Shown: positions 6,813 to 55,955, counted from the stretch's first letter. The stretch is DNA of 64,000 nucleotides from an uncultured archaeon (GCA_964373695.1 CAYJVT010000003.1:437-64436); one strand, 5' to 3'. Notes: generated by a model not told the origin, from the letters alone. A program made the numbers and translations.

Positions 6813-9800
6813 CTAACCCGCCCTCGTCATGTCTATGCCGAACACCTTTGATACGCCGCCCTCTATGGAGACGCCGAACACCTTGTCGGCTTCCTGTATC
6901 GTGATGTCGTTGTGACTTATGACTATGAACTGCACCTGAGCAGAGTATTTCTTTATGAGTCCGGCAATTTTCTTCGTGTTTGCCTTGTCCAGGGCGGCGT
7001 CTATCTCGTCCAGGACATAGAAGGGCGCGGAACTGTACTGCATTATAGCGAAAAGGAACGCAAGGGATGTGAGAGTCTTCTCGCCGCCGCTCATCGCATC
7101 CAGATTCACGACCCTTTTCCCCATTGGCGACGCCTCTATGACAAGGCCTGTGTCTATGTTGTTCTCCTCCTCCAGCCTGAGTATGCCGATGCCGCCTGTC
7201 AGGTCCTCGTATATCTTGGCGAAGTTCTCCCTTATCTTCACCATGACCTCCATGAACTTGTCGTACCGCCTCTTCTCGACCTCGTGAACTATCCTTAGTA
7301 TGGCGTCCTTCTCCTCAAGGAGCTTCTCCAGCTTTCTCTTCATCTCGTCGAACTCGACGCCTATCGTACCGTATTCTTCTATGGCCCTCATGTTTATCGG
7401 CCCCAGACGGTTTATCTCTATGACGCAGAAGCGGAGCTTTTCCTGGAGCTCGTCCACTGACTTGTCGTAAAATTCCTGGACGTCCCTGTACTCACCGAAC
7501 TCGATGCGAAAGTTGTCAAGCGAGGCTTCAAGCCTGGCCTTCTCTATCCTGAGCTTGCTCACCCTGCTCTGCTGCACTAGGCGCTGCTCATACAATTCCT
7601 TCCTTTTCTTCCTCATGCCGTCTATTTCCTTCTCCTCAGCGCTTTTTTCCTCCTGGAGCTTTGTCACCTCTTTCGTCTCCTCCTGTTCCTGTCCCTTCAG
7701 CTCTTCGAGCTTTGATTCAAGCCCGGAGACTTCGGCTTCCAGGGCGCCCTTTTCTTCTTCAGCCTTCGCGACATGGCCCGAGTACTGGTCGCCGGCCTTC
7801 TTCCTGTAGAACCCGCCTATTATGGCGCCGGACGCCTCTATAAGGTCGCCATCCAAGGTCGCCGCCCTGAGCCTGCCAAGCCGGCGCGCCTTGTCAAGGC
7901 TGTCCGTTATGACGGTGCTTCCAAGGACGTAATCCACAGCCGGAAGACAATCCTTGTTGAATTTCACCAGGTCCGACGCCCATCCGATATAGTCGCCCCT
8001 TACGTCCTTCCTCTTTCCACCCCTTATCTTGTTGAGCGGAAGGAAGCGCGCCCTGCCTATCCTCTTCTCCTTGAGCATCCTGACGCATTCCGAGGCTACA
8101 TCGTCGTCATCGACCACTATGTCGTCGGCATGCCTTCCCACGGCGACCTGTATCGCTATCTCGTACCTTTTGGGCACCGACAGAAGGGACATCAGCGTGC
8201 CCCTGATACCCGGATGCCCGAGCTTCAGAACTTCCTTGACAGCCGGGTTCTGCCTGCCTGCGGAAAGCTCCCTGAGCCTCTCCAACTCCCTGTCTATGAG
8301 GTCTATGCGGTCGTTTTTCCTTATTATCTCGGTCTGCATCCCGTCGATTTTCCTCTGTATGTCGTAGTTTCTGGACTTCTTTATCAGCTCGTCGCTCTTC
8401 CTGAACACGTTCTTCTCCTTCTTCTCGAGCTCCTTCTCCACAGACTCGAATTCTGATTCCAGCACGCCGAAGCTTTCCTCGCCGCTTTTTATTTCCGTAT
8501 CAATGAGCGAGTATTTCTCCTCTGCATCGGACAGTTTTTTTCTGACGAGAGATGCCTTTGATTTCTTCAGCTCGTCACTAAGCATGATATACTTCTCCGC
8601 CACTTCCTTCTCCTGTTTCAGCCTCTCAACCAGGCGCTGCTTCTCGGCGACGACTATCATGTTCTCCTTCACCCTCGATTCAACCTTCTCCAGCTCTATG
8701 GAGGCTTTCTGCTTCTTCTCGTCGAATTCGCTTATGCCCGATATCTCGTCAAGGATGGAGCGCCTTTCCTGGGCGGACATCTCTATTATCTTGGTGACAT
8801 CACCCTGCATGATTATGTTGTAGCCCTCGGTGAAGAGGTTGGCGTATGAGAGTATATCGAGGACTTTCGCCCTGGTCGTGTTGCGGCCGTTTATCTTGTA
8901 CACCGAGATGCCGCTCCTCGTTATCTTCCTCGAGACTTTCATCTCCTTCTCGCCTGGTATCTTGTCGTCGGAATTGTCCAGATACAGGGAGACTTCGCAG
9001 AAGTCCGCCGGTTTCCTGTCCCTGGCCCCGTTGAAGAGAAGGTTCTGCAGTTTCTCTGCGCGGATGCTGCGCGCCGATGTCGTGCCCAGGACGAATGTGA
9101 TGGCATCTATGACATTGCTGTTGTGGACGAAGAAACCGTTTGCAATATAATTATGTGTCTCATCTACAGTCAGATCATAAACCCACTCAGAAGGCTTGGT
9201 TTCTTTTATTTCTATTATCTCATCCCATAAGATGTCAGAATCTGCTATCAAAAGCAGCTGATTCATGAGTGCAGAAGCTCTGGGTGTTATAGACCCGTAT
9301 TTTTTGATTACTTCAACTATTTCCCTAATTCCGTTTCTGCTGCAGGCGCATCTATCTTCATAATATGCCGCAAGCTTTGGGCATTCAGACCTTGTTTTTT
9401 TGATGCTTATTTTACATTCTCTTACAAGCGATTTTATAATTGCGTTTATGTCCGGAATCGTATCAATGTTAGAATTTCTGACAAATTCAAGCCTTTTTAT
9501 TTTGTCTGCAGTTTCTTTTTTCCTGCCTTTTAGCTCTATATTTTCGATAAGGATTTTTAGAGATTCCCCATATACGTAGATAGAATGGTATTTTCTCTTT
9601 ATTTTTCGCTTTGTATTTGATGCATATTTTATTTTTTCCTTTATGACTGACAATATTCCAAGCCGAAGAAGCAGTTGCTGAATTCCTTCTGCAAGTTCTT
9701 TGCTTGCGGTAGAATATTCAAAATATGTCTGCCCTGATCCGAGGTTAAAGTAGCCGTCGCCTTCAAACAATGCCGAAAGGAAATTCTTTATAATATCACC

Positions 9801-10862
9801 ATCACATCTAAAAATTAATTCAGGAACGACTTTTTCTGACGAATTTGAGCCTATTTTTAAATCAAACGACTCTTCTAGCACTATTTGGAGTGGCTTTGAG
9901 AACAAAATAACGTCTTTTGTATCCCCTTTATACGAAAATACATTTGCTTCAACTCCAAGGTGATTTTTGCATATTTCGACGAAGTCCGATATAAGCTCCT
10001 CATCATCGTTTACAAACCATAACTGATTTGAATCCGTAGACCTGCCTTCTGATATCATGTAGCCAAGAAAACGGGCCATTTCGCTTGAAATACTCGGGAT
10101 TTTTATGGCTTTATTTTGGTTTTTTGATTTGACATTGTCTATATCTAACTTCAGTCTGTATTTATCTGAAAGCTTTTTCAAATAATCATGGCGAATAGAT
10201 CGACCATCGAAAAGCCCCTTGATTGCGGCATGTGGAATGCCGGATTCTTTGGCGAATTCTCTGTAGGTTAAATGTCTTTTCTTTATTTCCACCTTTATCG
10301 CGGTTTTTAATTCATCTGAATACGGAACATAAAGATTTTCAAAATTCCTTTGCGAAGATGAAAAAACAGATTTTTCAAATATTGGTATGATTCTTGGAAC
10401 AGCAATCCTCTTCCCGATTTTTATCTCTTCTGCCTTGAGAGAAAAGATGCCATTTTCATTAATGCCAAAGAAAGGATGATAAGGAGTAGCTATTACCTCT
10501 CTTCCGGAACGGGTTTTTATATGCAGCAGCTTATCCGGGGATTTTCTTTTTATAAATGCCTTTATCGGATGTGATGATATTTTAAGATTTTTGTCAAGCG
10601 TGAGTATTTTAGTTTCATCGCCTTCTCCGATAAAACCGTCTTCTATCTCCGAAACTTTTTTTGACTTTTCTAGTCTGCTTTCTACCAGTTTCCCTATCTT
10701 CACTATTCCGCCGTCTGACAGGGTAACAAGACTGTCATAATGGAGGCATTTTCCGGAGCCGTTCGGCCCTGCTATGACATTGAAACCGTCGGGGAAGGGT
10801 ATCATGACCTTTCCAGCGAACGACTTGAATCCCTGCATCGTTATCCTGTCTAATCTCACCAT
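6813..10862 (-). CDS. smc: Chromosome segregation ATPase SMC, interrupted by a 543-aa intein in the Walker A motif
   Basis: N-terminal FNVIAGPNGSGK then Cys plus intein, resuming SNVIDAITFVLG. Long Lys/Glu-rich coiled coils, hinge (GIRGTLMSLLSV...), C-terminal signature LSGGEKTLTSLAFLFAI and Walker B FYVLDEIDAALD. The extein is about 806 aa, normal SMC size. Confidence 0.9.
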   Translation of the reverse strand: MVRLDRITMQGFKSFAGKVMIPFPDGFNVIAGPNGSGKCLHYDSLVTLSDGGIVKIGKLVESRLEKSKKVSEIEDGFIGEGDETKILTLDKNLKISSHPIKAFIKRKSPDKLLHIKTRSGREVIATPYHPFFGINENGIFSLKAEEIKIGKRIAVPRIIPIFEKSVFSSSQRNFENLYVPYSDELKTAIKVEIKKRHLTYREFAKESGIPHAAIKGLFDGRSIRHDYLKKLSDKYRLKLDIDNVKSKNQNKAIKIPSISSEMARFLGYMISEGRSTDSNQLWFVNDDEELISDFVEICKNHLGVEANVFSYKGDTKDVILFSKPLQIVLEESFDLKIGSNSSEKVVPELIFRCDGDIIKNFLSALFEGDGYFNLGSGQTYFEYSTASKELAEGIQQLLLRLGILSVIKEKIKYASNTKRKIKRKYHSIYVYGESLKILIENIELKGRKKETADKIKRLEFVRNSNIDTIPDINAIIKSLVRECKISIKKTRSECPKLAAYYEDRCACSRNGIREIVEVIKKYGSITPRASALMNQLLLIADSDILWDEIIEIKETKPSEWVYDLTVDETHNYIANGFFVHNSNVIDAITFVLGTTSARSIRAEKLQNLLFNGARDRKPADFCEVSLYLDNSDDKIPGEKEMKVSRKITRSGISVYKINGRNTTRAKVLDILSYANLFTEGYNIIMQGDVTKIIEMSAQERRSILDEISGISEFDEKKQKASIELEKVESRVKENMIVVAEKQRLVERLKQEKEVAEKYIMLSDELKKSKASLVRKKLSDAEEKYSLIDTEIKSGEESFGVLESEFESVEKELEKKEKNVFRKSDELIKKSRNYDIQRKIDGMQTEIIRKNDRIDLIDRELERLRELSAGRQNPAVKEVLKLGHPGIRGTLMSLLSVPKRYEIAIQVAVGRHADDIVVDDDDVASECVRMLKEKRIGRARFLPLNKIRGGKRKDVRGDYIGWASDLVKFNKDCLPAVDYVLGSTVITDSLDKARRLGRLRAATLDGDLIEASGAIIGGFYRKKAGDQYSGHVAKAEEEKGALEAEVSGLESKLEELKGQEQEETKEVTKLQEEKSAEEKEIDGMRKKRKELYEQRLVQQSRVSKLRIEKARLEASLDNFRIEFGEYRDVQEFYDKSVDELQEKLRFCVIEINRLGPINMRAIEEYGTIGVEFDEMKRKLEKLLEEKDAILRIVHEVEKRRYDKFMEVMVKIRENFAKIYEDLTGGIGILRLEEENNIDTGLVIEASPMGKRVVNLDAMSGGEKTLTSLAFLFAIMQYSSAPFYVLDEIDAALDKANTKKIAGLIKKYSAQVQFIVISHNDITIQEADKVFGVSIEGGVSKVFGIDMTRAG
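9120..10748 (-). mobile_element. Intein with LAGLIDADG-type homing endonuclease domain inside the SMC P-loop
   Basis: Begins CLHYDSLVTLSDGG (block A) and has a TxxH block (IATPYHPFF). Two LAGLIDADG-like motifs (FLGYMISEGR, LSALFEGDGYF). Ends VYDLTVDETHNYIANGFFVHN followed by extein Ser. The intein DNA is markedly more AT-rich than the flanking extein. Confidence 0.85.
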
Positions 10863-24029: not shown

Positions 24030-24267
24030 CTTCCTATAAAATTTATAGAAATCTTTTTAAATGCCTAAAATCTCATCCCCTACATTGCACCTGAAATATG
24101 GGATTTTGGCATGTGTGAAAACCGTAGGCTTTCAATGCGCAAAGGTCTTTGGCATCTCAAAAGAGCTTCGCTCTTTTGCGGACATCACATAAAACTTCGT
24201 TTTCTGATGGTCTTCAGACGGTGGTCATTGACACTCGCATAATCCGGCAAATCATGTCATGCCCTGA

Positions 24268-26062: not shown

Positions 26063-26368
26063 TTGACAACCTTTATAAAAACAAGGATTTTCATTTATAG
26101 AATGATAACTGAAGCGGATTACAGGAGGGCTGTCGAAGAGCCTGCGTACAGGCAGGAATTCCTTGACAGCATCGACATGGAGGATGCAAGGCCTTATGTG
26201 AGCAGGGTTGTTTATTGTCCCAATCAACGCCAGTACCGATCTACGTTGATTATGCAGACTAACGTACCATTTCTTTCATTGTTAGGCATCAGAAGACTAA
26301 GATATGATGTAATTGCATTTCCTTTTGCATTTACCCTCCCTTTGGCGGTTTTATGTCCAGTCTTATAG
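26063..26368 (+). CDS. Hypothetical protein (low confidence) in an AT-richer islet
   Basis: ORF only; the hydrophobic C-terminus could be one TM helix. Local GC is lower than in neighbouring core genes. Confidence 0.2.
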   Translation: MTTFIKTRIFIYRMITEADYRRAVEEPAYRQEFLDSIDMEDARPYVSRVVYCPNQRQYRSTLIMQTNVPFLSLLGIRRLRYDVIAFPFAFTLPLAVLCPVL

Positions 26369-26607
26369 ACCATGAAGGCTACCATGCCAGACGGATATAT
26401 GAAAATCCACTGAGCGAAGCAAGTATGTGGAAACTTTTCACAGAAGATGAAAAATTCATGGCTGAAATGGAAATGAGAGCTACAAATAATCAGATCAGAA
26501 ATTTCTTGAGTGAAAGGAGAGGTCTTTCCGACGACTCCTTAGAAGAACTTTATAGAAGACAGCACAAATATGCCAACCTCATCCGAGAACTTCGACGACG
26601 CCGGTGA
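26353..26607 (+). CDS. Hypothetical protein (low confidence)
   Basis: ORF only, with a basic C-terminus. It overlaps the 3-prime end of rps27e on the opposite strand. Confidence 0.2.
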   Translation: MSSLIDHEGYHARRIYENPLSEASMWKLFTEDEKFMAEMEMRATNNQIRNFLSERRGLSDDSLEELYRRQHKYANLIRELRRRR

Positions 26608-26755
26608 GTATTTCAGCGTGGCCGCCTGTCGGCTTTGCTAGGACTGTCTCGCAGATGAGGCACTTCACTTCGTTGCACGCCTTGCTGAACACTATCTGCT
26701 CGTTCTTGCATTTCTTGCACTTGACCTTCAGGAACTTGCTTTCGGGAGTTTCCAT
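26579..26755 (-). CDS. rps27e: 30S ribosomal protein S27e (eS27)
   Basis: C4 zinc ribbon FLKVKCKKCKNEQIVFSKACNEVKCLICETVLAKPTGGHAEI. Confidence 0.8.
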   Translation of the reverse strand: METPESKFLKVKCKKCKNEQIVFSKACNEVKCLICETVLAKPTGGHAEILTGVVEVLG

Positions 26756-26895
26756 GAGCATAACACTGCGCAAACGCTTAAATCGGTATCTGCCAATACC
26801 GATTAGTCCGAATTTCTCAAATTCAGACTTAAATTGCTTTCCGGCTCATCGTTTTAAAAGCTTTTACGAAGTCAGAGTAATTATAAACATCCAGA

Positions 26896-26995
26896 GGTAT
26901 AGTGCTCCAATGAAATAAAAAGGATATTATATCATTGGGCACTATATGTGAAACAAGCTATAATGTCGGTATTATTTTCTTGTTTCACTATACAT
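26896..26995. repeat. AT-rich palindromic-motif element, copy A (about 100 bp), inverted relative to copy B at 55140..55330
   Basis: The reverse complement of this segment matches 55140..55330 nearly base for base, apart from an internal roughly 95-bp tandem expansion in B. It contains three CACTATAGTG-like motifs. It lies in the divergent rps27e/rpl7ae promoter region. Confidence 0.75.
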
Positions 26996-27010
26996 TAGAG
27001 GTGCAAACCT

Positions 27011-27319
27011 ATGACAAAAACTGAAGACATTCTAGAAATAATAGAGGCTGCAAGGGAAACAGGGAAGATAAGAAAGGGCGTGAACGAGGCCACGAAGGCC
27101 GTCGAAAGGGGCATCGCAAAGCTCGTGGTGGTCGCCGAGGACGTCGACCCGAAGGAAATCGTGATGCATCTGCCGCCCCTCTGCGAGGAGAAGAAGATAC
27201 CTTTCCACAAGGTCCCCACCAAGAACGAGCTTGGGCGAGCAGCAGGCCTTGACGTTTCATCGGCAGCCATAGCGGTTGTCGATGCCGGAGAGGCGAAGAA
27301 GAAGCTGTCTGAGTTGTGA
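27011..27319 (+). CDS. rpl7ae: 50S ribosomal protein L7Ae (eL8), also a C/D and H/ACA snoRNP protein
   Basis: [30 protein letters not shown] conserved K-turn-binding core. Confidence 0.9.
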
Positions 27320-27322
27320 TTC

Positions 27323-27533
27323 AATGCCGGACGACGTAACGCCAGCCGAAATCATAGCGCTCATGGGAAGAGCAGGAACCAAGGGGGTAAACCGCGTGAA
27401 GTGCAGGGTCGTTGACGGCCGCGACAAAGGAAAGATACTCACGAGGAACATAATGGGCCCGGTAAGGATAGGCGACGTCGTCATGCTGAGGGAGACCGAG
27501 ATGGATTCTTCGAGCAGCTATGGAAGGCGGTAA
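27323..27533 (+). CDS. rps28e: 30S ribosomal protein S28e (eS28)
   Basis: VTPAEIIALMGRAGTKGVNRVKCRVVDGRDKGKILTRNIMGPVRIGDVVMLRETE is the S28e OB-fold signature. Start at the internal Met. Confidence 0.85.
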
Positions 27534-27536
27534 ACG

Positions 27537-27695
27537 ATGAAATGCTCATTCTGCTCCAGGGACATAGAGACCGGGACCGGAAAGTCCCTCATACAGAACA
27601 ACGGCAAGGTGCTTAATTTCTGCTCGAACAAGTGCGAGAAGAACAGAGTGAAGCTCAACAGGGATCCTAGGAACTTCAAGTGGGCTAGGAATTAA
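27537..27695 (+). CDS. rpl24e: 50S ribosomal protein L24e (eL24), 52 aa; absent from ORF track
   Basis: MKCSFCSRDIETGTGKSLIQNNGKVLNFCSNKCEKNRVKLNRDPRNFKWARN with a C4 zinc ribbon. Canonical position after rps28e. Confidence 0.8.
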   Translation: MKCSFCSRDIETGTGKSLIQNNGKVLNFCSNKCEKNRVKLNRDPRNFKWARN

Positions 27696-28161
27696 TCTTC
27701 ATTATAGCCCTTATCAGGTCCTTCTTGGTGACGATTCCTACAAGGCGGCCCCTGGAGACGACAGGCAGCCTGTCTATGGAGTTCTTGTTTATCAGCTTCG
27801 CGGCCTCGTAGATGCTCTTTTCCTCGTCCACTGTCACGACCTTCCTGCTCATTATGTCCTTCACCTTCTTGCCGCGGACCTTCCTCACGGCATCCCTCGA
27901 GACGTCGGCGTCCTTCAAAAGCTTCCTGACAGCCGCGGCGTCCGAAGCGTCGTTTATTCTCGAGAACACGTCGAGGCTCCTTATGATATCTGACTGGGTC
28001 ACGATGCCGACGACCCTGCCGCTGGACACGACCGGCATCCCTGTTATGTTCCTGGATGAAAGCTTCCTCACGGCGTCGCCGAAACTTTCCTCCGGCCTTG
28101 CGGAAACGACTTTCCTCGACATTATGTCTCCGATTTTCATAGAAGACAAATGGGCATCCAT
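27685..28161 (-). CDS. CBS-domain pair protein
   Basis: Two CBS repeats (IMSRKVV...GMPVV...GIVTQSDIIRSL, repeated). Confidence 0.75.
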   Translation of the reverse strand: MDAHLSSMKIGDIMSRKVVSARPEESFGDAVRKLSSRNITGMPVVSSGRVVGIVTQSDIIRSLDVFSRINDASDAAAVRKLLKDADVSRDAVRKVRGKKVKDIMSRKVVTVDEEKSIYEAAKLINKNSIDRLPVVSRGRLVGIVTKKDLIRAIMKINS

Positions 28162-28261
28162 GAATAAGAAGTTTCCTGCCTGTGTGTAAAGCCTTTTAAT
28201 CCTTTATATCCAAGAATTACCCTGCAAGGCTAGCCGAAAGGCGTCGAACCTTGGTGGTATA

Positions 28262-28735
28262 ATGGCTGAAACAAGAAAGATAATCAGGCTTCTGTCCACT
28301 GACATAGACGGAAACCTAGGCCTCCAGAGGGCCATGCGCAAGATAAAGGGCGTAAGCTTCATGTTCTCAAGAAATACATGCGTATCCCTCGGGCTTGACG
28401 GGAAGAGGAAGATAGGCACGCTAAACGACGAGGAGCTGAAACGCATAGAATCATTCGTAAAGAGCCCCACATTCCCGCAATGGATGCTGAACAGGAGAAA
28501 GGACTGCGAGACTGGCAAGGACCTTCACGTTGTCATGTCGGACCTGGAGCTGAAGAAAAGGGAGGACATAAACCTGCTGAGAAGGATAAAATCCTACAAG
28601 GGCGTGAGGCACGAGCTGGGCCAGCCGGTCAGGGGGCAGCGCACCCGAAGCTCCTTCAGGACGCAGAAAACGGTAGGCGTCTCCAAGAAAAGCCTGCGCT
28701 CAGCAGCCAAGGCGGCGCCGGCGGAGAAGAAGTGA
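28262..28735 (+). CDS. rps13: 30S ribosomal protein S13 (uS13)
   Basis: IRLLSTDIDGNLGLQRAMRKIKGVSFMFS conserved N-terminus and basic tail. Confidence 0.9.
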   Translation: MAETRKIIRLLSTDIDGNLGLQRAMRKIKGVSFMFSRNTCVSLGLDGKRKIGTLNDEELKRIESFVKSPTFPQWMLNRRKDCETGKDLHVVMSDLELKKREDINLLRRIKSYKGVRHELGQPVRGQRTRSSFRTQKTVGVSKKSLRSAAKAAPAEKK

Positions 28736-28741
28736 TAATTT

Positions 28742-29233
28742 ATGGGACACCCGAAAAAGCAGCGGAAGAAGTATGACAGCCCCATGAAGCCTTACGACAA
28801 GGCCCGCATAGAGAAAGAGAGGGCCGTGAAGGACAACTTCGGCCTCCGCAGGAAGAAGGAGATATGGCAGGCGGAGAGTATACTTAGGAGCTTCAGACAG
28901 CGCGCAAGGGCGCTCCAGGACAACAGGAACGAGAAGGACGAGGCGACACTCCTCAGGACGCTAAGAAATATGGGGATAAAATGCGACAACCTGGAAAATG
29001 TCCTCGAAATCGGCCTTGACGACATACTTTCCAGGAGGCTCCAGACCATAGTCCACAAGAATGGCCTCGCCAACACGATGAAGCAGTCCAGGCAGCTTGT
29101 CGTTCATGGCCATGTATCGGTCGGCGGAAGAAAAATCATGTATCCCAGTTACATAGTCTCGGGCGACGAAGAGGACAAGATAACGATGGACAAGAAGATA
29201 AAACTGCAGAGCGAGGAGAAGAAAGATGCCTAG
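28742..29233 (+). CDS. rps4: 30S ribosomal protein S4 (uS4)
   Basis: [20 protein letters not shown]-terminus and S4 domain ([33 protein letters not shown]). Confidence 0.9.
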
Positions 29234-29615
29234 GGAAAAGTGGGGAATAGCATATATTTACTCGTCTATAAACAACACAATAATCCACATAACGGACGTG
29301 ACAGGCGCGGAGACGATAGCGATAGCGAGCGGCGGCCAGGTCACAGACAGGGACATGGACAAGGGCAAGCCGTTCACCGCGATGAGGGCCTCCAGGAAGG
29401 CCGCGGAGAAGGCCATAGCCTATGGAATTACCAATCTTCACATAAGGATACGCGCCCCTGGAGGCAACAAGTCCAGGATACCGGGCCAGGGCGCGCAGCC
29501 TGCGATAAGGGCCCTAGCAAGGGCCGGGTTTCGCATAGGCCAGATAGAGGACATAACTCCGGTGAGCCACGATTCATCCAGGAAGAAGGGAGGAAGGCGC
29601 GGCCGCAGGGTGTAG
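29226..29615 (+). CDS. rps11: 30S ribosomal protein S11 (uS11)
   Basis: [29 protein letters not shown] conserved core. Confidence 0.9.
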
Positions 29616-29616
29616 G

Positions 29617-30420
29617 GTGATAATGATGAAACTCAAGATAATCGAGAAAGACGGCACTAAAATGAAGTTTTCTTTAGAGGATGCCTCGCCGGCGTTCGCC
29701 AACGCCCTGAGGAGGATAATGATAAACGAGCTACCGACGCTCGCCGTGGAAACGGTCGACGTGGAGGAGAACGGCTCCGGGATGTTCGACGAGATGCTGG
29801 CGCACAGGCTCGGCCTCGTGCCGCTTACAATACCGAAGAAGTTCAGCTTCAGGGAAGAGTGCAAATGCGACGGCAAGGGATGCAGCATGTGCCAGGTCAC
29901 CCTTGTGGCCGAGAAGCAGGGGCCGTGCATCGTATACGCGAGCGACATGAAGTCCACGAACGACGACGTCAGGGCAGTGGACGGCGACATACCCATAGCC
30001 GAGCTCCTTGACGGCCAGAGGCTCAAGTTCGAGGCCATAGCGCAGCTTGGCTACGGCAAGAACCACATGAAGTGGCAGGCTGCGACAGCCGGATACAGGT
30101 GCGTGGCGAACGTGAAGATATATCCCGAGCGGGACAAGGACGTTGAAGGATATACTATTGATGTATGCCCCAAGAACGTCTTTGACAGGAAGGAAGGCGG
30201 CGTAAAGGTCGCCAGGCCCGAGGACTGCAACCTTTGCATGAGGTGCGTCGAGGTGGCAAAGGACAACGCTGCCATCGTCACATCTGACGAGAACAGCTTC
30301 ATATTCAGGGTAGAGAGCGTTTCAGGACTTTCGGCGGATGATGTGCTGGCGAAGGCGATAGACGAAATAGAGAGGCGCGCGGAGGACTTCGCCTCAAGCT
30401 TCAGGAAGGCTGTTAAATGA
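29617..30420 (+). CDS. rpoD: DNA-directed RNA polymerase subunit D (Rpb3 homolog)
   Basis: FANALRRIMINELPTLAVETVDVEENGSGMFDEMLAHRLGLVPL dimerisation domain plus a 4Fe-4S-type Cys cluster (CKCDGKGCSMCQV; CNLCMRCVEV). Confidence 0.9.
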   Translation: MIMMKLKIIEKDGTKMKFSLEDASPAFANALRRIMINELPTLAVETVDVEENGSGMFDEMLAHRLGLVPLTIPKKFSFREECKCDGKGCSMCQVTLVAEKQGPCIVYASDMKSTNDDVRAVDGDIPIAELLDGQRLKFEAIAQLGYGKNHMKWQAATAGYRCVANVKIYPERDKDVEGYTIDVCPKNVFDRKEGGVKVARPEDCNLCMRCVEVAKDNAAIVTSDENSFIFRVESVSGLSADDVLAKAIDEIERRAEDFASSFRKAVK

Positions 30421-30461
30421 CAGATTTAATAGTCAAAAAAATAAGATAACACTAAGTCATT

Positions 30462-30600
30462 GCGGGGGTACCCAAGTCTGGTCAAAGGGGCAGGAGACAA
30501 CGAGATAAATGGGCTCGTCGTCCGCCAAACTTAAGACAAGACTTGGAATAAGAAATCCTGTGGCTTAGTGTCTACGAGAGTTCGAATCTCTCCCCCCGCA
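30462..30600 (+). tRNA. Class II tRNA (probably Leu) with about 53 nt of intronic sequence at non-canonical position(s) in the anticodon arm
   Basis: Acceptor GCGGGGG/CCCCCGC with discriminator A. D-arm CCC-AAGTCTGGTCAAAG-GGG and T-arm GAGAG-TTCGAAT-CTCTC. Anticodon stem CAGGA/TCCTG encloses 60 nt, so the mature length is about 86 nt. An internal CTTAAGA would give anticodon UAA if two splice sites are used. The anticodon is unresolved by eye. Confidence 0.65.
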
Positions 30601-30623
30601 CTGATTTCCTTTCAGGAAATCAG
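30601..30623 (+). other. 9-bp-stem hairpin immediately 3-prime of the tRNA (CTGATTTCC-TTTCA-GGAAATCAG)
   Basis: Perfect inverted repeat starting at the first base after the discriminator. Candidate processing or termination structure. Confidence 0.4.
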
Positions 30624-30631
30624 GAGCCCCC

Positions 30632-30667
30632 CCATCAAACCAGTAGGCCCCATCAAACCAGTAGGCC
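30632..30667. repeat. Tandem duplication 2 x 18 bp (CCATCAAACCAGTAGGCC) upstream of rpl18e
   Basis: Two perfect adjacent copies ending 8 nt before the rpl18e ATG. Confidence 0.6.
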
Positions 30668-30674
30668 CAGTAAA

Positions 30675-31022
30675 GTGATAATCATGCCAAAACCAACAGG
30701 TCCGATGAATCCGGAGGCAACAGGCATCATAGCCGAGATGAAGAGAAAGAAGGCGTATCCAGACGTGGCCAGGCATCTTTCCAGGCCGAGAAGGGCGAAG
30801 GAAGGCGTCAACGTCGGGAAGATAAACAGGACGTCGGCCAGCGGCGAAACAGTCATAATACCGCATGCATGCCTTGGCGAAGGCGTGCTCGACAAGAAGG
30901 TCACCGTATACGCCATGAAGTTCAGCGCGTCTGCCAGGCGGAAGATAGAGGAGAATGGCGGCAAATGCCTGCCCCTGTCGCAGCTCATGAAGGACGGCGC
31001 AAAAGGAAGGATATTGATATGA
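30675..31022 (+). CDS. rpl18e: 50S ribosomal protein L18e (eL18)
   Basis: VNVGKINRTSASGETVIIPHACLGEGVLDKKVTVYAMKFSASARRKIEENGGK matches L18e. Canonical position after rpoD. Confidence 0.8.
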   Translation: MIIMPKPTGPMNPEATGIIAEMKRKKAYPDVARHLSRPRRAKEGVNVGKINRTSASGETVIIPHACLGEGVLDKKVTVYAMKFSASARRKIEENGGKCLPLSQLMKDGAKGRILI

Positions 31023-31414
31023 AGACGATAGACGGCTCGAATTCGATAATGGGAAGGCTTGCCTCAATGACGGCCAAGCAGCTCCTCAGGGGGGAGAAGA
31101 TATGCATAGTAAACGCCGAAAAGGTTATAATAACAGGCGACAGGAAGCAGATAATGAATGACTACCTGGAAAGGAGACGAAGAGGTTCGCCCCACCACGG
31201 CCCGTTCTTCCCGACAAGACCAGAGGCCATAGTCAGGAGATGCATCAGAGGCATGCTCCCATACAAGACCAACAGGGGAAGGGCGGCTTTCAAGAACCTC
31301 ACGGTCTCAATAGGGCACGACGGCAGCAGCGCTGAAAGGATGGCGCAGAAAACCGTGAAGACCAGCTACGTGACGGTAGGCGACGTCGCGAAAATCCTTG
31401 GATGGAGAAAGTGA
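31019..31414 (+). CDS. rpl13: 50S ribosomal protein L13 (uL13)
   Basis: MKTIDGSNSIMGRLASMTAKQLLRGEKICIVNAEKVIITG. The start ATG overlaps the rpl18e stop (ATGA). Confidence 0.9.
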   Translation: MKTIDGSNSIMGRLASMTAKQLLRGEKICIVNAEKVIITGDRKQIMNDYLERRRRGSPHHGPFFPTRPEAIVRRCIRGMLPYKTNRGRAAFKNLTVSIGHDGSSAERMAQKTVKTSYVTVGDVAKILGWRK

Positions 31415-31851
31415 TATTTATGGAACAGGAGCCCGTGAAAAAGAAAAAGAAGATGCTCATAGCGACGGGCAAGAGAAAGAAGGCGATAGCGCGGGCCATC
31501 ATAACAGAGGGCACCGGAAAGTTCACCGTCAACAAAAAGCCTATTGAGAGCATAGACTCTAGATACAGGAAGCTCAGGATAAAGGAGCCCATACTGATAG
31601 CCGGCGAGCTCGCGAACGGCGTCGACGTCTCGGTGAGCGTGAAGGGCGGCGGCACATGGGGCCAGACGGACGCCTGCCGCACCGCGATAGCCAACGCGCT
31701 CGTTTCGTGGAGCAAGAGCGACACCCTCAAATATGCTTACACAGACTACGACAGGTCGCTCCTTGTATCAGACTCCAGAAGGACAGAGCCCCACAAGCCT
31801 TCGAGGTCTACTGCAGGCCCCAGAAGGAGCAAGCAGCAGTCGAAGAGGTAA
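31402..31851 (+). CDS. rps9: 30S ribosomal protein S9 (uS9)
   Basis: ATGKRKKAIARAIITEGTGKFTVNKKPIE conserved block. The true start is probably the internal Met (MLIATGKRK). Confidence 0.9.
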   Translation: MEKVIFMEQEPVKKKKKMLIATGKRKKAIARAIITEGTGKFTVNKKPIESIDSRYRKLRIKEPILIAGELANGVDVSVSVKGGGTWGQTDACRTAIANALVSWSKSDTLKYAYTDYDRSLLVSDSRRTEPHKPSRSTAGPRRSKQQSKR

Positions 31852-31865
31852 GAAGAGGAGATAAG

Positions 31866-54815: not shown

Positions 54816-55034
54816 ATGACATCGACAAGATTCGATTTTTACGTGCACGGACTGTGGATAATAGGGGCCGTGCTGTTCTTCTTGGGCTCGATGATAGCAG
54901 GGAATGTCGAGTGGCTCGAAGGCACGACAGAGGCCAGCTTCGGCGTTTCCGTCGCAATCGCCTTCGTGCTGTTCCTCACCGCCGGAATGTGCTGGATCTC
55001 GGCAAGCGTCAATGCAAGGCACGAGCAAAAGTAA
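54816..55034 (+). CDS. Small membrane protein (2 TM)
   Basis: Hydrophobic helices only. Confidence 0.3.
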   Translation: MTSTRFDFYVHGLWIIGAVLFFLGSMIAGNVEWLEGTTEASFGVSVAIAFVLFLTAGMCWISASVNARHEQK

Positions 55035-55139: not shown

Positions 55140-55330
55140 TATAGTGAAACAATAAAATAATACCGGCATTATAGCTTGTTTCACATATATAGTGAACCAA
55201 ATAAATAAACAGGATATAACTTATTTGGTTCACATATAGTGCCCAAGAAAACTAATAATTATGATTGTTTTCTTGGAGCACTATAGTGCCCAATGATATA
55301 ATATCCTTTTTATTTCATTGGAGCACTATA
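55140..55330. repeat. AT-rich element copy B: tandem array (period about 45-49 bp, 4 units) of palindromic CAC(A)TATAGTG motifs
   Basis: Unit cores are TTGTTTCACATATATAGTGAACC, TTGGTTCACATATAGTGCCCAAG, TTGGAGCACTATAGTGCCCAATG and TTGGAGCACTATAAAGCC. The ends are near-identical to the reverse complement of 26896..26995. Confidence 0.75.
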
Positions 55331-55385: not shown

Positions 55386-55955
55386 CTATGCTGATTCTCC
55401 TTTCTTCATTTCGGGCAGGACTTCGGTCTTCCTGACCTCGATGCCGCCGACAGGGTATATCCTGCACACCTCTTTCCTGGCTATGTCCTGAAGCTCGCCG
55501 CTTATTATCATGCCCACGAAGTCATCGAATGCAGTCTTCTTCGCGATGTCGTCTATGATATCTATCGCATACGCGCGGCATGAATTCTTAATGGACGTGC
55601 CGACGCGCCTTATGAGGATGAATACTGTCTTCACGCGCATCCTGGCGCCGTCCTTGGTCACCACGTCCTGCACGCAGTCTATGCGCCTTCCCTGGCGCTG
55701 GACCATGCGGTAAAGGCGCTCCCTCATTATGTCATGCCCTATGAACTTGGTGAAAGCCTTGTCGCCCTCGACATGCACTATCTGGAACGCCGGCTTTAAG
55801 TAGAATTTCTGGTAGTTGTCGGAAAGTTCGAGCATGCTGACTTCTATCTTCCTTCCTATCAGGTTGGAGGGGTCTACTGAAAGGGTCTCGCCTATCTGCC
55901 TCTCGCCGAACGCCTTCGGGCTTATTATTTCATACCATTTCTTTTTCAATGCCAT
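55386..55955 (-). CDS. rps3ae: 30S ribosomal protein S3Ae (eS1)
   Basis: KKKWYEIISPKAFGERQIGETL N-terminus and conserved core. Confidence 0.9.
   Translation of the reverse strand: MALKKKWYEIISPKAFGERQIGETLSVDPSNLIGRKIEVSMLELSDNYQKFYLKPAFQIVHVEGDKAFTKFIGHDIMRERLYRMVQRQGRRIDCVQDVVTKDGARMRVKTVFILIRRVGTSIKNSCRAYAIDIIDDIAKKTAFDDFVGMIISGELQDIARKEVCRIYPVGGIEVRKTEVLPEMKKGESA

Follow-up and report, generated by a model that had tools for sequence, protein, structure and literature searches.

What is the cluster of palindromes that occupies the spacer behind a ribosomal protein gene of an uncultured archaeon, and how did its ends come to recur, inverted, beside the gene for ribosomal protein L7Ae? The stretch of DNA analysed here (64,000 nucleotides; GCA_964373695.1 CAYJVT010000003.1:437-64436; hereafter the window) carries this cluster at 55140-55330 (copy B) and the related sequence at 26898-26992 (copy A). 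A preliminary description had taken copy B for a tandem expansion of copy A and had offered three readings of the element: a repeated transcription-factor operator, a MITE-like mobile repeat or a small-RNA family. Our analyses indicate that the window probably holds members of a TA-duplicating, double-hairpin MITE family of Aenigmatarchaeota, one as a simple copy and the other as a nested pair.

Related hairpin repeats at two loci of the window

That related hairpin repeats occupy both loci was confirmed. Direct reading of the sequence revealed four consecutive units of 47-51 nt each at 55140-55330, of which the first and last form the reverse complement of 26898-26992 while the middle two are absent there, just as the preliminary description had it. 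With the middle 96 nt of copy B (55190-55285) removed, the remainder was colinear with copy A over 95 nt with 2 mismatches and no gaps, such that the two loci carry 98%-identical elements once the inner part of copy B is set aside; their flanks are unrelated, which excludes a segmental duplication. Both loci are AT-rich and non-coding, again as first described, with only short AT-rich chance ORFs running across the element. Other parts of that description needed amending. Four repeated units are present, but their register is shifted, and the palindromic CAC(A)TATAGTG motif that was thought to open each unit is the junction of adjacent hairpins. Such palindromic junctions exist, but the exact decamer CACTATAGTG occurs a single time in the window, at 55279, the remaining junctions reading CAC-ATATA-GTG and CAC-ATATATA-GTG. 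The natural unit is a hairpin, GTG-stem-loop-stem-CAC, with TATA on both sides. Nor do the units stand head to tail: their orientations are -> -> <- <-, with units 1 and 2 being hairpins of one type (type I) and units 3 and 4, which oppose them, being hairpins of a second type (type II), reversed. Only the stem base is common to the window hairpins (GTG[A/C]4A.. / ..TTG[G/T][A/T][G/T]CAC), each inner stem having its own sequence with complementarity kept.

These hairpins stand out clearly from their surroundings. A degenerate hairpin pattern written from the window units (TATAGTGMMMMAD N15-35 TTGKWKCACWWWW) matched 6/6 hairpins and nothing besides in the 64-kb window, with 0 matches in 100 shuffles. 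Structure prediction on both strands, a check that the preliminary description had proposed, gave folding far better than that of shuffled sequences, with z = -10.0 and -8.7 for the two strands of copy B and z = -5.4 and -6.3 for those of copy A. In addition, we built a profile HMM from 58 doublets (a type I hairpin followed by an opposed type II hairpin) of other genomes, with no window sequence included, and searched the whole window with it; it returned four matches, namely copy A and, within copy B, one full doublet and two halves, and no copy beyond these.

Copy A (26898-26992, minus strand) is a complete short-form doublet that matches the HMM over its full length (model 1-97; E=3.2e-19), arranged I -> <- II on the minus strand, with flanking TA dinucleotides at 26898-26899 and 26991-26992. 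Its hairpin II (GTGCTCCAATGAAATAAAAAGGATATTATATCATTGGGCAC; 26902-26942, sense on the plus strand) has a 1-nt bulge in the 5' arm, and its hairpin I (GTGAAACAAGAAAATAATACCGACATTATAGCTTGTTTCAC; 26948-26988, sense on the minus strand) has a loop whose plus-strand sequence, TATTATTT, resembles a TATA box and lies 34-41 nt before the L7Ae ATG. The doublet lies between two divergent genes. One encodes ribosomal protein S27e (26579-26773, minus strand; Pfam PF01667, E=2e-20), the ORF of which is listed to 26773 with an ATG start likely near 26755-26757, and the other encodes ribosomal protein L7Ae (27011-27319, plus strand; Pfam PF01248 on an identical protein) and is the first of an L7Ae-S28e-L24e cluster. 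Copy A ends 18 nt before the L7Ae ATG, with a GAGGTG Shine-Dalgarno sequence in between.

Copy B starts 55 nt past the stop codon of the gene for ribosomal protein S3Ae (55386-55955, minus strand; Pfam PF01015), in the spacer between this gene and a convergent 72-aa ORF on the plus strand (54816-55034), membrane-protein-like by its hydrophobic sequence and with no Pfam match. On the plus strand, the left half of an outer doublet (55140-55189) matches model positions 1-52 only (E=7e-7) and comprises a TA (55140-55141), hairpin I-1 (55144-55184) and a junction A-TA-TA, with the TA at 55188-55189 marked by in-silico excision as the left of the two target copies that the inner insertion produced. 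There follows the inner doublet of 94 nt (55190-55283, plus strand), which consists of TAGTG, hairpin I-2 (55192-55233), CAC-ATATA-GTG, hairpin II-3 (55239-55281, antisense on the plus strand) and CACTA, and which gives a full-length HMM match at 55188-55285 (model 1-97; E=7.7e-19). The right half of the outer doublet (55284-55330, plus strand; HMM match 55282-55330 to model positions 49-97 only, E=2.6e-6) then resumes with a TA (55284-55285, the target copy on the right), hairpin II-4 (55286-55326) and TATA (55327-55330). Hairpin II-4 is antisense on the plus strand and identical to hairpin II of copy A.

Anatomy, distribution and stem covariation of the family

The pattern written from the window units also found further copies elsewhere, another check that the preliminary description had named: a scan of a collection with one genome per species matched at least 101 stretches. 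Among the 101 matches listed, about 77 were archaeal, mostly from Candidatus Aenigmatarchaeota MAGs, in at least 20 assemblies and with many per genome. The other 24 of the 101 listed were single matches in unrelated bacteria, and 23/24 of these had no hairpin extension past the pattern, consistent with chance. Three MAGs labelled Pacearchaeota/Woesearchaeota (loci L012, L023 and L090) carry family-like hairpins (e.g., TATAGTGAACCAAATAAAGAACACCGAC...TTTGGTTCACTAAT in L023), so that either the family reaches beyond Aenigmatarchaeota or these MAGs are mislabelled. Scans of metagenomes with the empty copy-B site and with the terminal inverted repeat of a window hairpin I gave 0 matches each, and a scan of viral contigs gave one chance match with no hairpin.

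Alignment of the copies gave type I hairpins the form tataGTGAA[A/C]CAAGTAAATAATC.GG[A/T]TATGAT..CTTG[G/T]TTCACatat, with the loop motif AATAATCNGGATAT conserved across species, and type II hairpins follow the same plan with the addition of a 1-nt bulge and a variable stem base. A second stable structure (at or below -12 kcal/mol) followed hairpin I in 78/84 cases. This was hairpin II, in opposite orientation and with a common ATATAG junction and CTATA end, in about 65 of them, and in most of the remaining cases a small double-hairpin module lay between I and II, which makes up a long form. Because all directly detected doublets were of the arrangement I-> <-II and none was divergent, the unit of the family is the doublet rather than the single hairpin. 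The doublet measures about 93-100 bp (about 150 bp in the long form) and reads TA-TAG(TGAA)..I..CAC-ATA-TAG..II..CTA-TA. By the HMM consensus its outer arms form imperfect terminal inverted repeats (TIRs) of about 30 bp, TA-TAGTGAA[A/C]CAAGTAAATAATCNGGATAT... on the left and ...CTTG..NNNCTA-TA on the right, with the left end (TATAGTGAACCAAG...) corresponding to the right end when the latter is reverse-complemented (TATAG(T/C)NN.CAAGG...). Each TIR is then followed by its own internal complement, which yields the two hairpins of about 40 nt (I and II) joined by ATATA.

A second, smaller repeat was also seen, composed of two tandem, GC-richer hairpins of about 22 nt, TA-flanked and with CA...TG ends (e.g., TA-CAAACAGGAACGAAGTTCCTGTTG-TA-CAGCAGAAGCCTCGCTTCTGCTTG-TA at 2030-2086 of L092; loci include L092, L055, L056, L052, L063, L075, L078, L079, L089 and L103). 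It sits exactly at the I-II junction of the doublet in about 14 loci, giving the long form of about 150 bp, and a stand-alone relative (GCGCAAAGGTCTTTGGCATCTCAAAAGAGCTTCGCTCTTTTGCGGACAT) lies in the window at 24137-24192, within the 24030-24267 spacer. The smaller repeat may be an independent mini-MITE.

The stems vary between copies in a coordinated manner. Across 66 distinct type-I copies, which were chosen for pairing, the 13-pair stem was 91% Watson-Crick, a figure that fell to 81% in shuffles and to no more than 47% when the register was slid. Changes on both sides were seen at five pairs (AU/CG/GC at 10-45, AU/CG at 12-43, GC/AU/CG/UA at 14-41, UA/AU/GC at 15-40 and AU/UA at 16-39), and the covariation score was 0.226 versus 0.058 in shuffles, with 0/500 shuffles as high. 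At a position that the search pattern left free, the association persisted (C-G 37, A-T 24, mismatched 11). Type II hairpins are likewise compensated at their stem base (GTG/CAC, GCA/TGC, GTT/AAC, GTC/GAC and GCT/AGC), such that the right terminus of the doublet just inside CTA is variable (CAC, TGC, AAC, GAC, AGC) and covaries with its internal partner. Only 2/77 non-Watson-Crick stem cells were G·U, and this near absence points to symmetry on both strands; we infer that palindromic DNA accounts for the stems better than does selection of an RNA from one strand. Such a palindrome may be needed by the transposition machinery, or it could arise by template-switch correction of quasi-palindromes.

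Synteny places the window in a lineage and gives one element some age. A locus of MAG JACPJX01 (L033) is syntenic with window positions 26579-31852 at 72-79% DNA identity, which assigns the window to Aenigmatarchaeota (DPANN archaea). The same locus carries a doublet at the same site upstream of L7Ae, with diverged loops and with stems that are intact and compensated, in a genome of only about 73% DNA identity, and this persistence hints at selection or at palindrome-correcting mutation. Several further features of these syntenic regions are recorded here in their own right. Both genomes (window 26870-26890; L033 985-1005) have kept a TATA-like box, TAATTATAA, which precedes the doublet by 11-14 nt and is a candidate alternative promoter for L7Ae (or S27e); if it is used, the whole 95-nt doublet would be the L7Ae 5' leader. 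On another syntenic MAG contig (L037, 3250-3450, viewed on the minus strand), the coding sequences of S27e and L7Ae appear to be joined directly, with no spacer, probably through assembly collapse or deletion where other genomes carry the doublet. Two overlapping window ORFs (26063-26607, plus strand; 101 and 84 aa, no Pfam match) both match one 197-aa ORF of L033 (174-764), so that the gene between eIF2-alpha and S27e may be frameshifted in the window, or this may be a sequencing error. Elsewhere in the window, a 1349-aa ORF (6813-10862, minus strand) clusters with AAA/CDC48-like ATPases; its 1712-aa relative in L019 (1402-6540) is interrupted just past the Walker A region (…VINGPEIMCLDGETDIL…) in an intein-like manner, and the window protein may also contain an intein.

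Target sites, nesting and competing explanations

The window repeats belong to a dispersed family with defined boundaries, for which filled and empty sites as well as nested copies were observed. One genome of the family is MAG JACPRW01, with at least 15 doublets that differ from one another by 0-3 nt and have unrelated flanks directly outside TATA...TATA. Here another, longer multi-copy repeat has been struck twice by doublets, reciprocally, and thereby provides two comparisons of filled and empty sites. At site 1, the empty sequence GCTTATGTCGTAT-TA-ACGCGC (L016, L089 and L007) corresponds to TA[93 nt]TA in L049, and at site 2 the empty sequence CAGAACA-TA-ACCAGTG (L049) corresponds to TA[93 nt]TA in L016. 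A third comparison is copy B itself, after in-silico excision and set against copy A. All three are paralogous comparisons, and each has one TA when empty and a TA on each side when filled, with no conservation of the bases outside the flanking TA. The doublets are therefore small (<300 bp), non-coding, bounded by TIRs, dispersed with sharp ends and accompanied by TA at filled compared to empty sites, which are the properties of a MITE, and of the readings first offered for the array it is the MITE-like mobile repeat that holds up on these precise ends, dispersed copies, unrelated flanks, single-TA empty sites and nesting.

Copy B was read in the same terms. Its junctions, CAC-ATATATA-GTG and CAC-TATA-GTG, are those predicted for insertion at the second TA of CAC-A-TA-TA-GTG with TA duplication, and the combination of a full inner doublet, two outer halves and colinearity after excision of the 94-nt element together with one TA identifies copy B as a nested insertion. 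Doublets of JACPRW01 were also repeatedly seen inside the loops of other hairpin elements (L049 7230-7470, L016 7040-7240, L017 2790-3033 and L056 5581), a pattern that builds mosaics several layers deep and suggests that TA is preferred where it lies in AT-rich loops or palindromes. An orthologous spacer holds a doublet in L035 and none in the window.

From these data the following course of events would account for the window. A non-autonomous doublet, which folds or extrudes as two hairpins of about 40 nt, would be moved in trans by a DDE transposase of the IS630/Tc1-mariner type that inserts at TA; TA duplication is the signature of these enzymes. One doublet would have inserted between S27e and L7Ae to give copy A, and a recent sister of it (2 differences in 95 nt) downstream of S3Ae to give copy B; later a different doublet would have landed at the TA in the central junction of copy B, producing what looks like a four-unit array. 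Any host effect would be secondary, with a putative role as TATA-like box for L7Ae or as structured leader or trailer. We hold this account as a whole to be likely, and its parts with differing firmness. There is perhaps an even chance that the enzyme is an IS630/Tc1-like DDE transposase, and we infer that TA is duplicated rather than carried by the element, although the filled and empty sites fit duplication of TA and insertion 3' of TA by a TA-ending element equally. Genomic context agrees with selfish insertion: elements lay in convergent, divergent and tandem spacers in about equal measure (20/18/31 clusters) and in either orientation, by crude ORF calls, as selfish insertions would show. 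Among 609 ORFs from about 0.7 Mb of element-bearing loci, no multi-copy family resembling a transposase was found when cluster representatives were read by eye; no protein family recurred within 800 bp of the elements; and a search for an autonomous partner through orphan half-sites returned none, all orphans being truncated or interrupted copies.

One property of the family does not call for a DDE enzyme, however. Covarying stems and termini are unneeded by a DDE transposase that binds double-stranded TIRs and are more typical of hairpin-recognising systems, and the main rival to DDE is a system of this kind, in which a single-copy HUH (Y1) transposase of the IS200/IS605-RAYT type would recognise single-stranded hairpins and insert 3' of TA, with vertical persistence of the repeats, as in an archaeal REP/REPIN-like system. 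In its favour, stems vary and yet stay complementary, the terminal triplet of hairpin II included; inverted doublets and mosaics resemble those of REPINs and BIMEs; a phylum-wide spread with no multi-copy transposase nearby is what a single-copy enzyme would lead one to expect; and insertion after TA fits the filled and empty sites just as well. We nonetheless consider it unlikely. The sole apparent target is the TA dinucleotide and the ends are symmetric (TA-TAG...CTA-TA, TIRs of about 30 bp), whereas IS200/IS605 and REP elements have no TIRs and use 4-5-nt targets or GTAG/CGTC tags. Doublets of either orientation stand only a few kb apart (L016) and show no strand bias, and no HUH gene was seen in the examined loci or window neighbourhoods. 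In a survey of complete genomes, the Y1 transposases found in Archaea were all of the IS200 type (subclass 1.1; PMC6006769).

A wider form of this idea, to which we also give a low probability, is that the doublets constitute a hairpin-repeat system that has long been inherited vertically within a DPANN phylum. This could be either the archaeal equivalent of REPIN-RAYT, served by a domesticated, single-copy transposase that recognises structure, or a case in which selection keeps the hairpins for a use by the host (e.g., as promoter or leader of L7Ae or of other highly expressed genes). This idea is compatible with the strict stem covariation, the intact old orthologous stems and the presence in at least 20 species-level genomes.

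A cis-regulatory or structural element of the host, as opposed to selfish DNA, is quite improbable. Such an element could be an operator for a global regulator (e.g., Lrp/AsnC), a promoter or terminator cassette, or an RNA leader or trailer on ribosomal-protein mRNAs. It would be consistent with both window copies flanking ribosomal-protein genes and with the L033 doublet at the same site upstream of L7Ae, with the conserved loop motif, and with the TATA-like boxes that the hairpin I loop offers, TATTATTT at -41 (window) and TTTATATA at -46 (L033), distances within the -39 to -50 range of other window genes. Against it, the elements occur in all intergenic classes, in both orientations and beside unrelated genes; near-identical copies bounded by TA, together with nesting, indicate transposition; no Rfam family matches; the scarcity of G·U speaks against selection of an RNA on one strand; and an orthologous window spacer lacks the doublet that is present in L035. 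The operator array of the preliminary description finds no support either, as the repeats are spread over at least 20 archaeal assemblies, at unrelated loci that number in the dozens, and show no association with a neighbouring regulator. The adjacent Lrp/AsnC gene that had been put forward as cognate binder is 2.3 kb away, the neighbours of the window elements being housekeeping genes.

The small-RNA reading is likewise unsupported, given no Rfam match, no orientation bias relative to genes and covariation nearly free of G·U. At gathering thresholds, Rfam gave 0 matches over the whole window, and at E<=10 the best match at the locus, to a miRNA-precursor hairpin model, reached 26 bits where the threshold is 100, which is generic hairpin noise; a tRNA/tmRNA search found none. 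Inspection for structures that could relate to L7Ae autoregulation (C/D-box, H/ACA or K-turn) argued against these, as judged from sequence features, with no RUGAUGA/CUGA pair, no tandem G·A and an ACA that is not conserved, JACPRW01 copies ending in CACTTAT. Gene context gave no case for a promoter or terminator role, spacer classes being about equal with no orientation bias (crude ORF calls). A replication origin with ORB repeats was ruled out by the dozens of copies per genome. CRISPR had been dismissed from the outset because the units are too short and degenerate; we agree, as the units differ, are individually palindromic and stand in opposite orientations, and there are no identical direct repeats with unique spacers of similar length.

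Finally, origin of copy B by local tandem duplication or replication slippage of copy-A-like units, the expansion envisaged in the preliminary description, would suit units that are alike in size (47-51 nt) and have common stem bases but is already contradicted and almost certainly wrong, since the middle units (2 and 3), with different inner stems and loops, are no copies of the outer ones (1 and 4) and together match a full independent doublet where the outer ones match only halves, and since the junctions carry exactly one extra TA, as insertion of a second, different doublet would leave.

Implications and comparison with known systems

If the doublets are the MITE family that we favour, the odd palindrome array is accounted for by nested transposon insertions and is ordinary selfish DNA, and a false lead is removed, there being no operator array, CRISPR or small RNA before L7Ae. 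The kind of element is already known; for the family itself, our literature search turned up no account of such repeats from Aenigmarchaeota or DPANN. What emerges is a compact and easily searched repeat family (TA-TAGTGAA...CTA-TA) that is seemingly characteristic of Aenigmatarchaeota, with practical consequences. Doublet repeats break short-read assemblies of these genomes: Logan assemblies with exactly the L7Ae and S3Ae proteins of the window stop within or right beside the elements, at 26963 and 55347, a behaviour typical of dispersed repeats. Doublets could also serve as a lineage marker for binning, and they mark recent transposition in symbiont genomes so small that little mobile DNA would be expected.

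Among known systems, REP/BIME/REPIN sequences resemble the doublets in being short, extragenic, covarying palindromes that form inverted pairs and mosaics, persist in lineages and contain no internal transposase. They differ in their GTAG/CGTC tag, compared to ATAG/CTAT within TATA here, and the doublets differ from them in having long TIRs and TA at both ends, with no RAYT found in the loci. In the literature consulted, REP/RAYT systems have been described from bacteria only (PMC6006769).

The bacterial MITEs Correia/NEMIS and RUP are closer, with TIRs, terminal 5'-TA-3', TA duplication and lengths of about 100-155 bp (PMC2229807). Like the doublets, RUP of Streptococcus pneumoniae and MITEs of the IS630-Tc1-mariner group have a length of about 90-110 bp, TIRs and TA on both sides, and RUP frequently inserts into other mobile elements (PMC2229807), much as doublets here enter the loops and junctions of other doublets. 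RUP and IS630-Spn1 exemplify TA duplication (PMC2229807), and an autonomous IS with matching TIRs is known for RUP whereas none was found for the doublets in the fetched loci. The double-hairpin, four-arm architecture with covarying stems has also not been described for RUP or IS630 MITEs. Archaeal MITEs are known and include IS630-derived ones, such as an 89-bp ISMma9-related MITE of Methanosarcina mazei (PMC3852290).

The closest analogue is the Correia/NEMIS element (CREE) of Neisseria. Its repeat, tatagtggattaacaaaaatcaggacaa with variants, begins TATAGTGGATTAA... (PMC5039591), and it comes in forms of about 107 and 155 bp with terminal TA and with empty sites 2 bp shorter than expected (PMC2229807). 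Both it and the doublet are non-coding MITEs with termini TA-TAGTG...CACTA-TA that are identical over the first 7 nt, and both have two size classes that differ by an internal segment of about 50 bp (107/155 bp there and about 95-100/150 bp here), an ATCAGGA block inside the TIR, an intergenic position beside genes, hairpin folding and no identified transposase. The hosts differ, a betaproteobacterium there and a DPANN archaeon here, and so does the architecture, with one long TIR-TIR stem in Correia compared to two separate hairpins of about 40 nt here, in which each TIR pairs with an adjacent internal complement. The IHF sites, bacterial -10/-35 promoters and RNase III processing of Correia have no evident counterpart in the doublets. 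The 26-bp Correia inverted repeat (TATAGTGGATTAA[CAAAAA/ATTTAA][TCAGGAC/CCGGTAC]) does not occur in them, only the terminal TATAGTG being identical, and past this heptamer 1611/2000 and 2081/3000 shuffles scored at least as high as the real comparison by alignment and by profile. Because scores beyond the heptamer are no better than those of shuffles, we treat the doublet family as an analogue of Correia and not as a demonstrated homologue. With their same termini, TA target and size classes, Correia and the doublets nevertheless make a useful pair for finding the mobilising enzyme.
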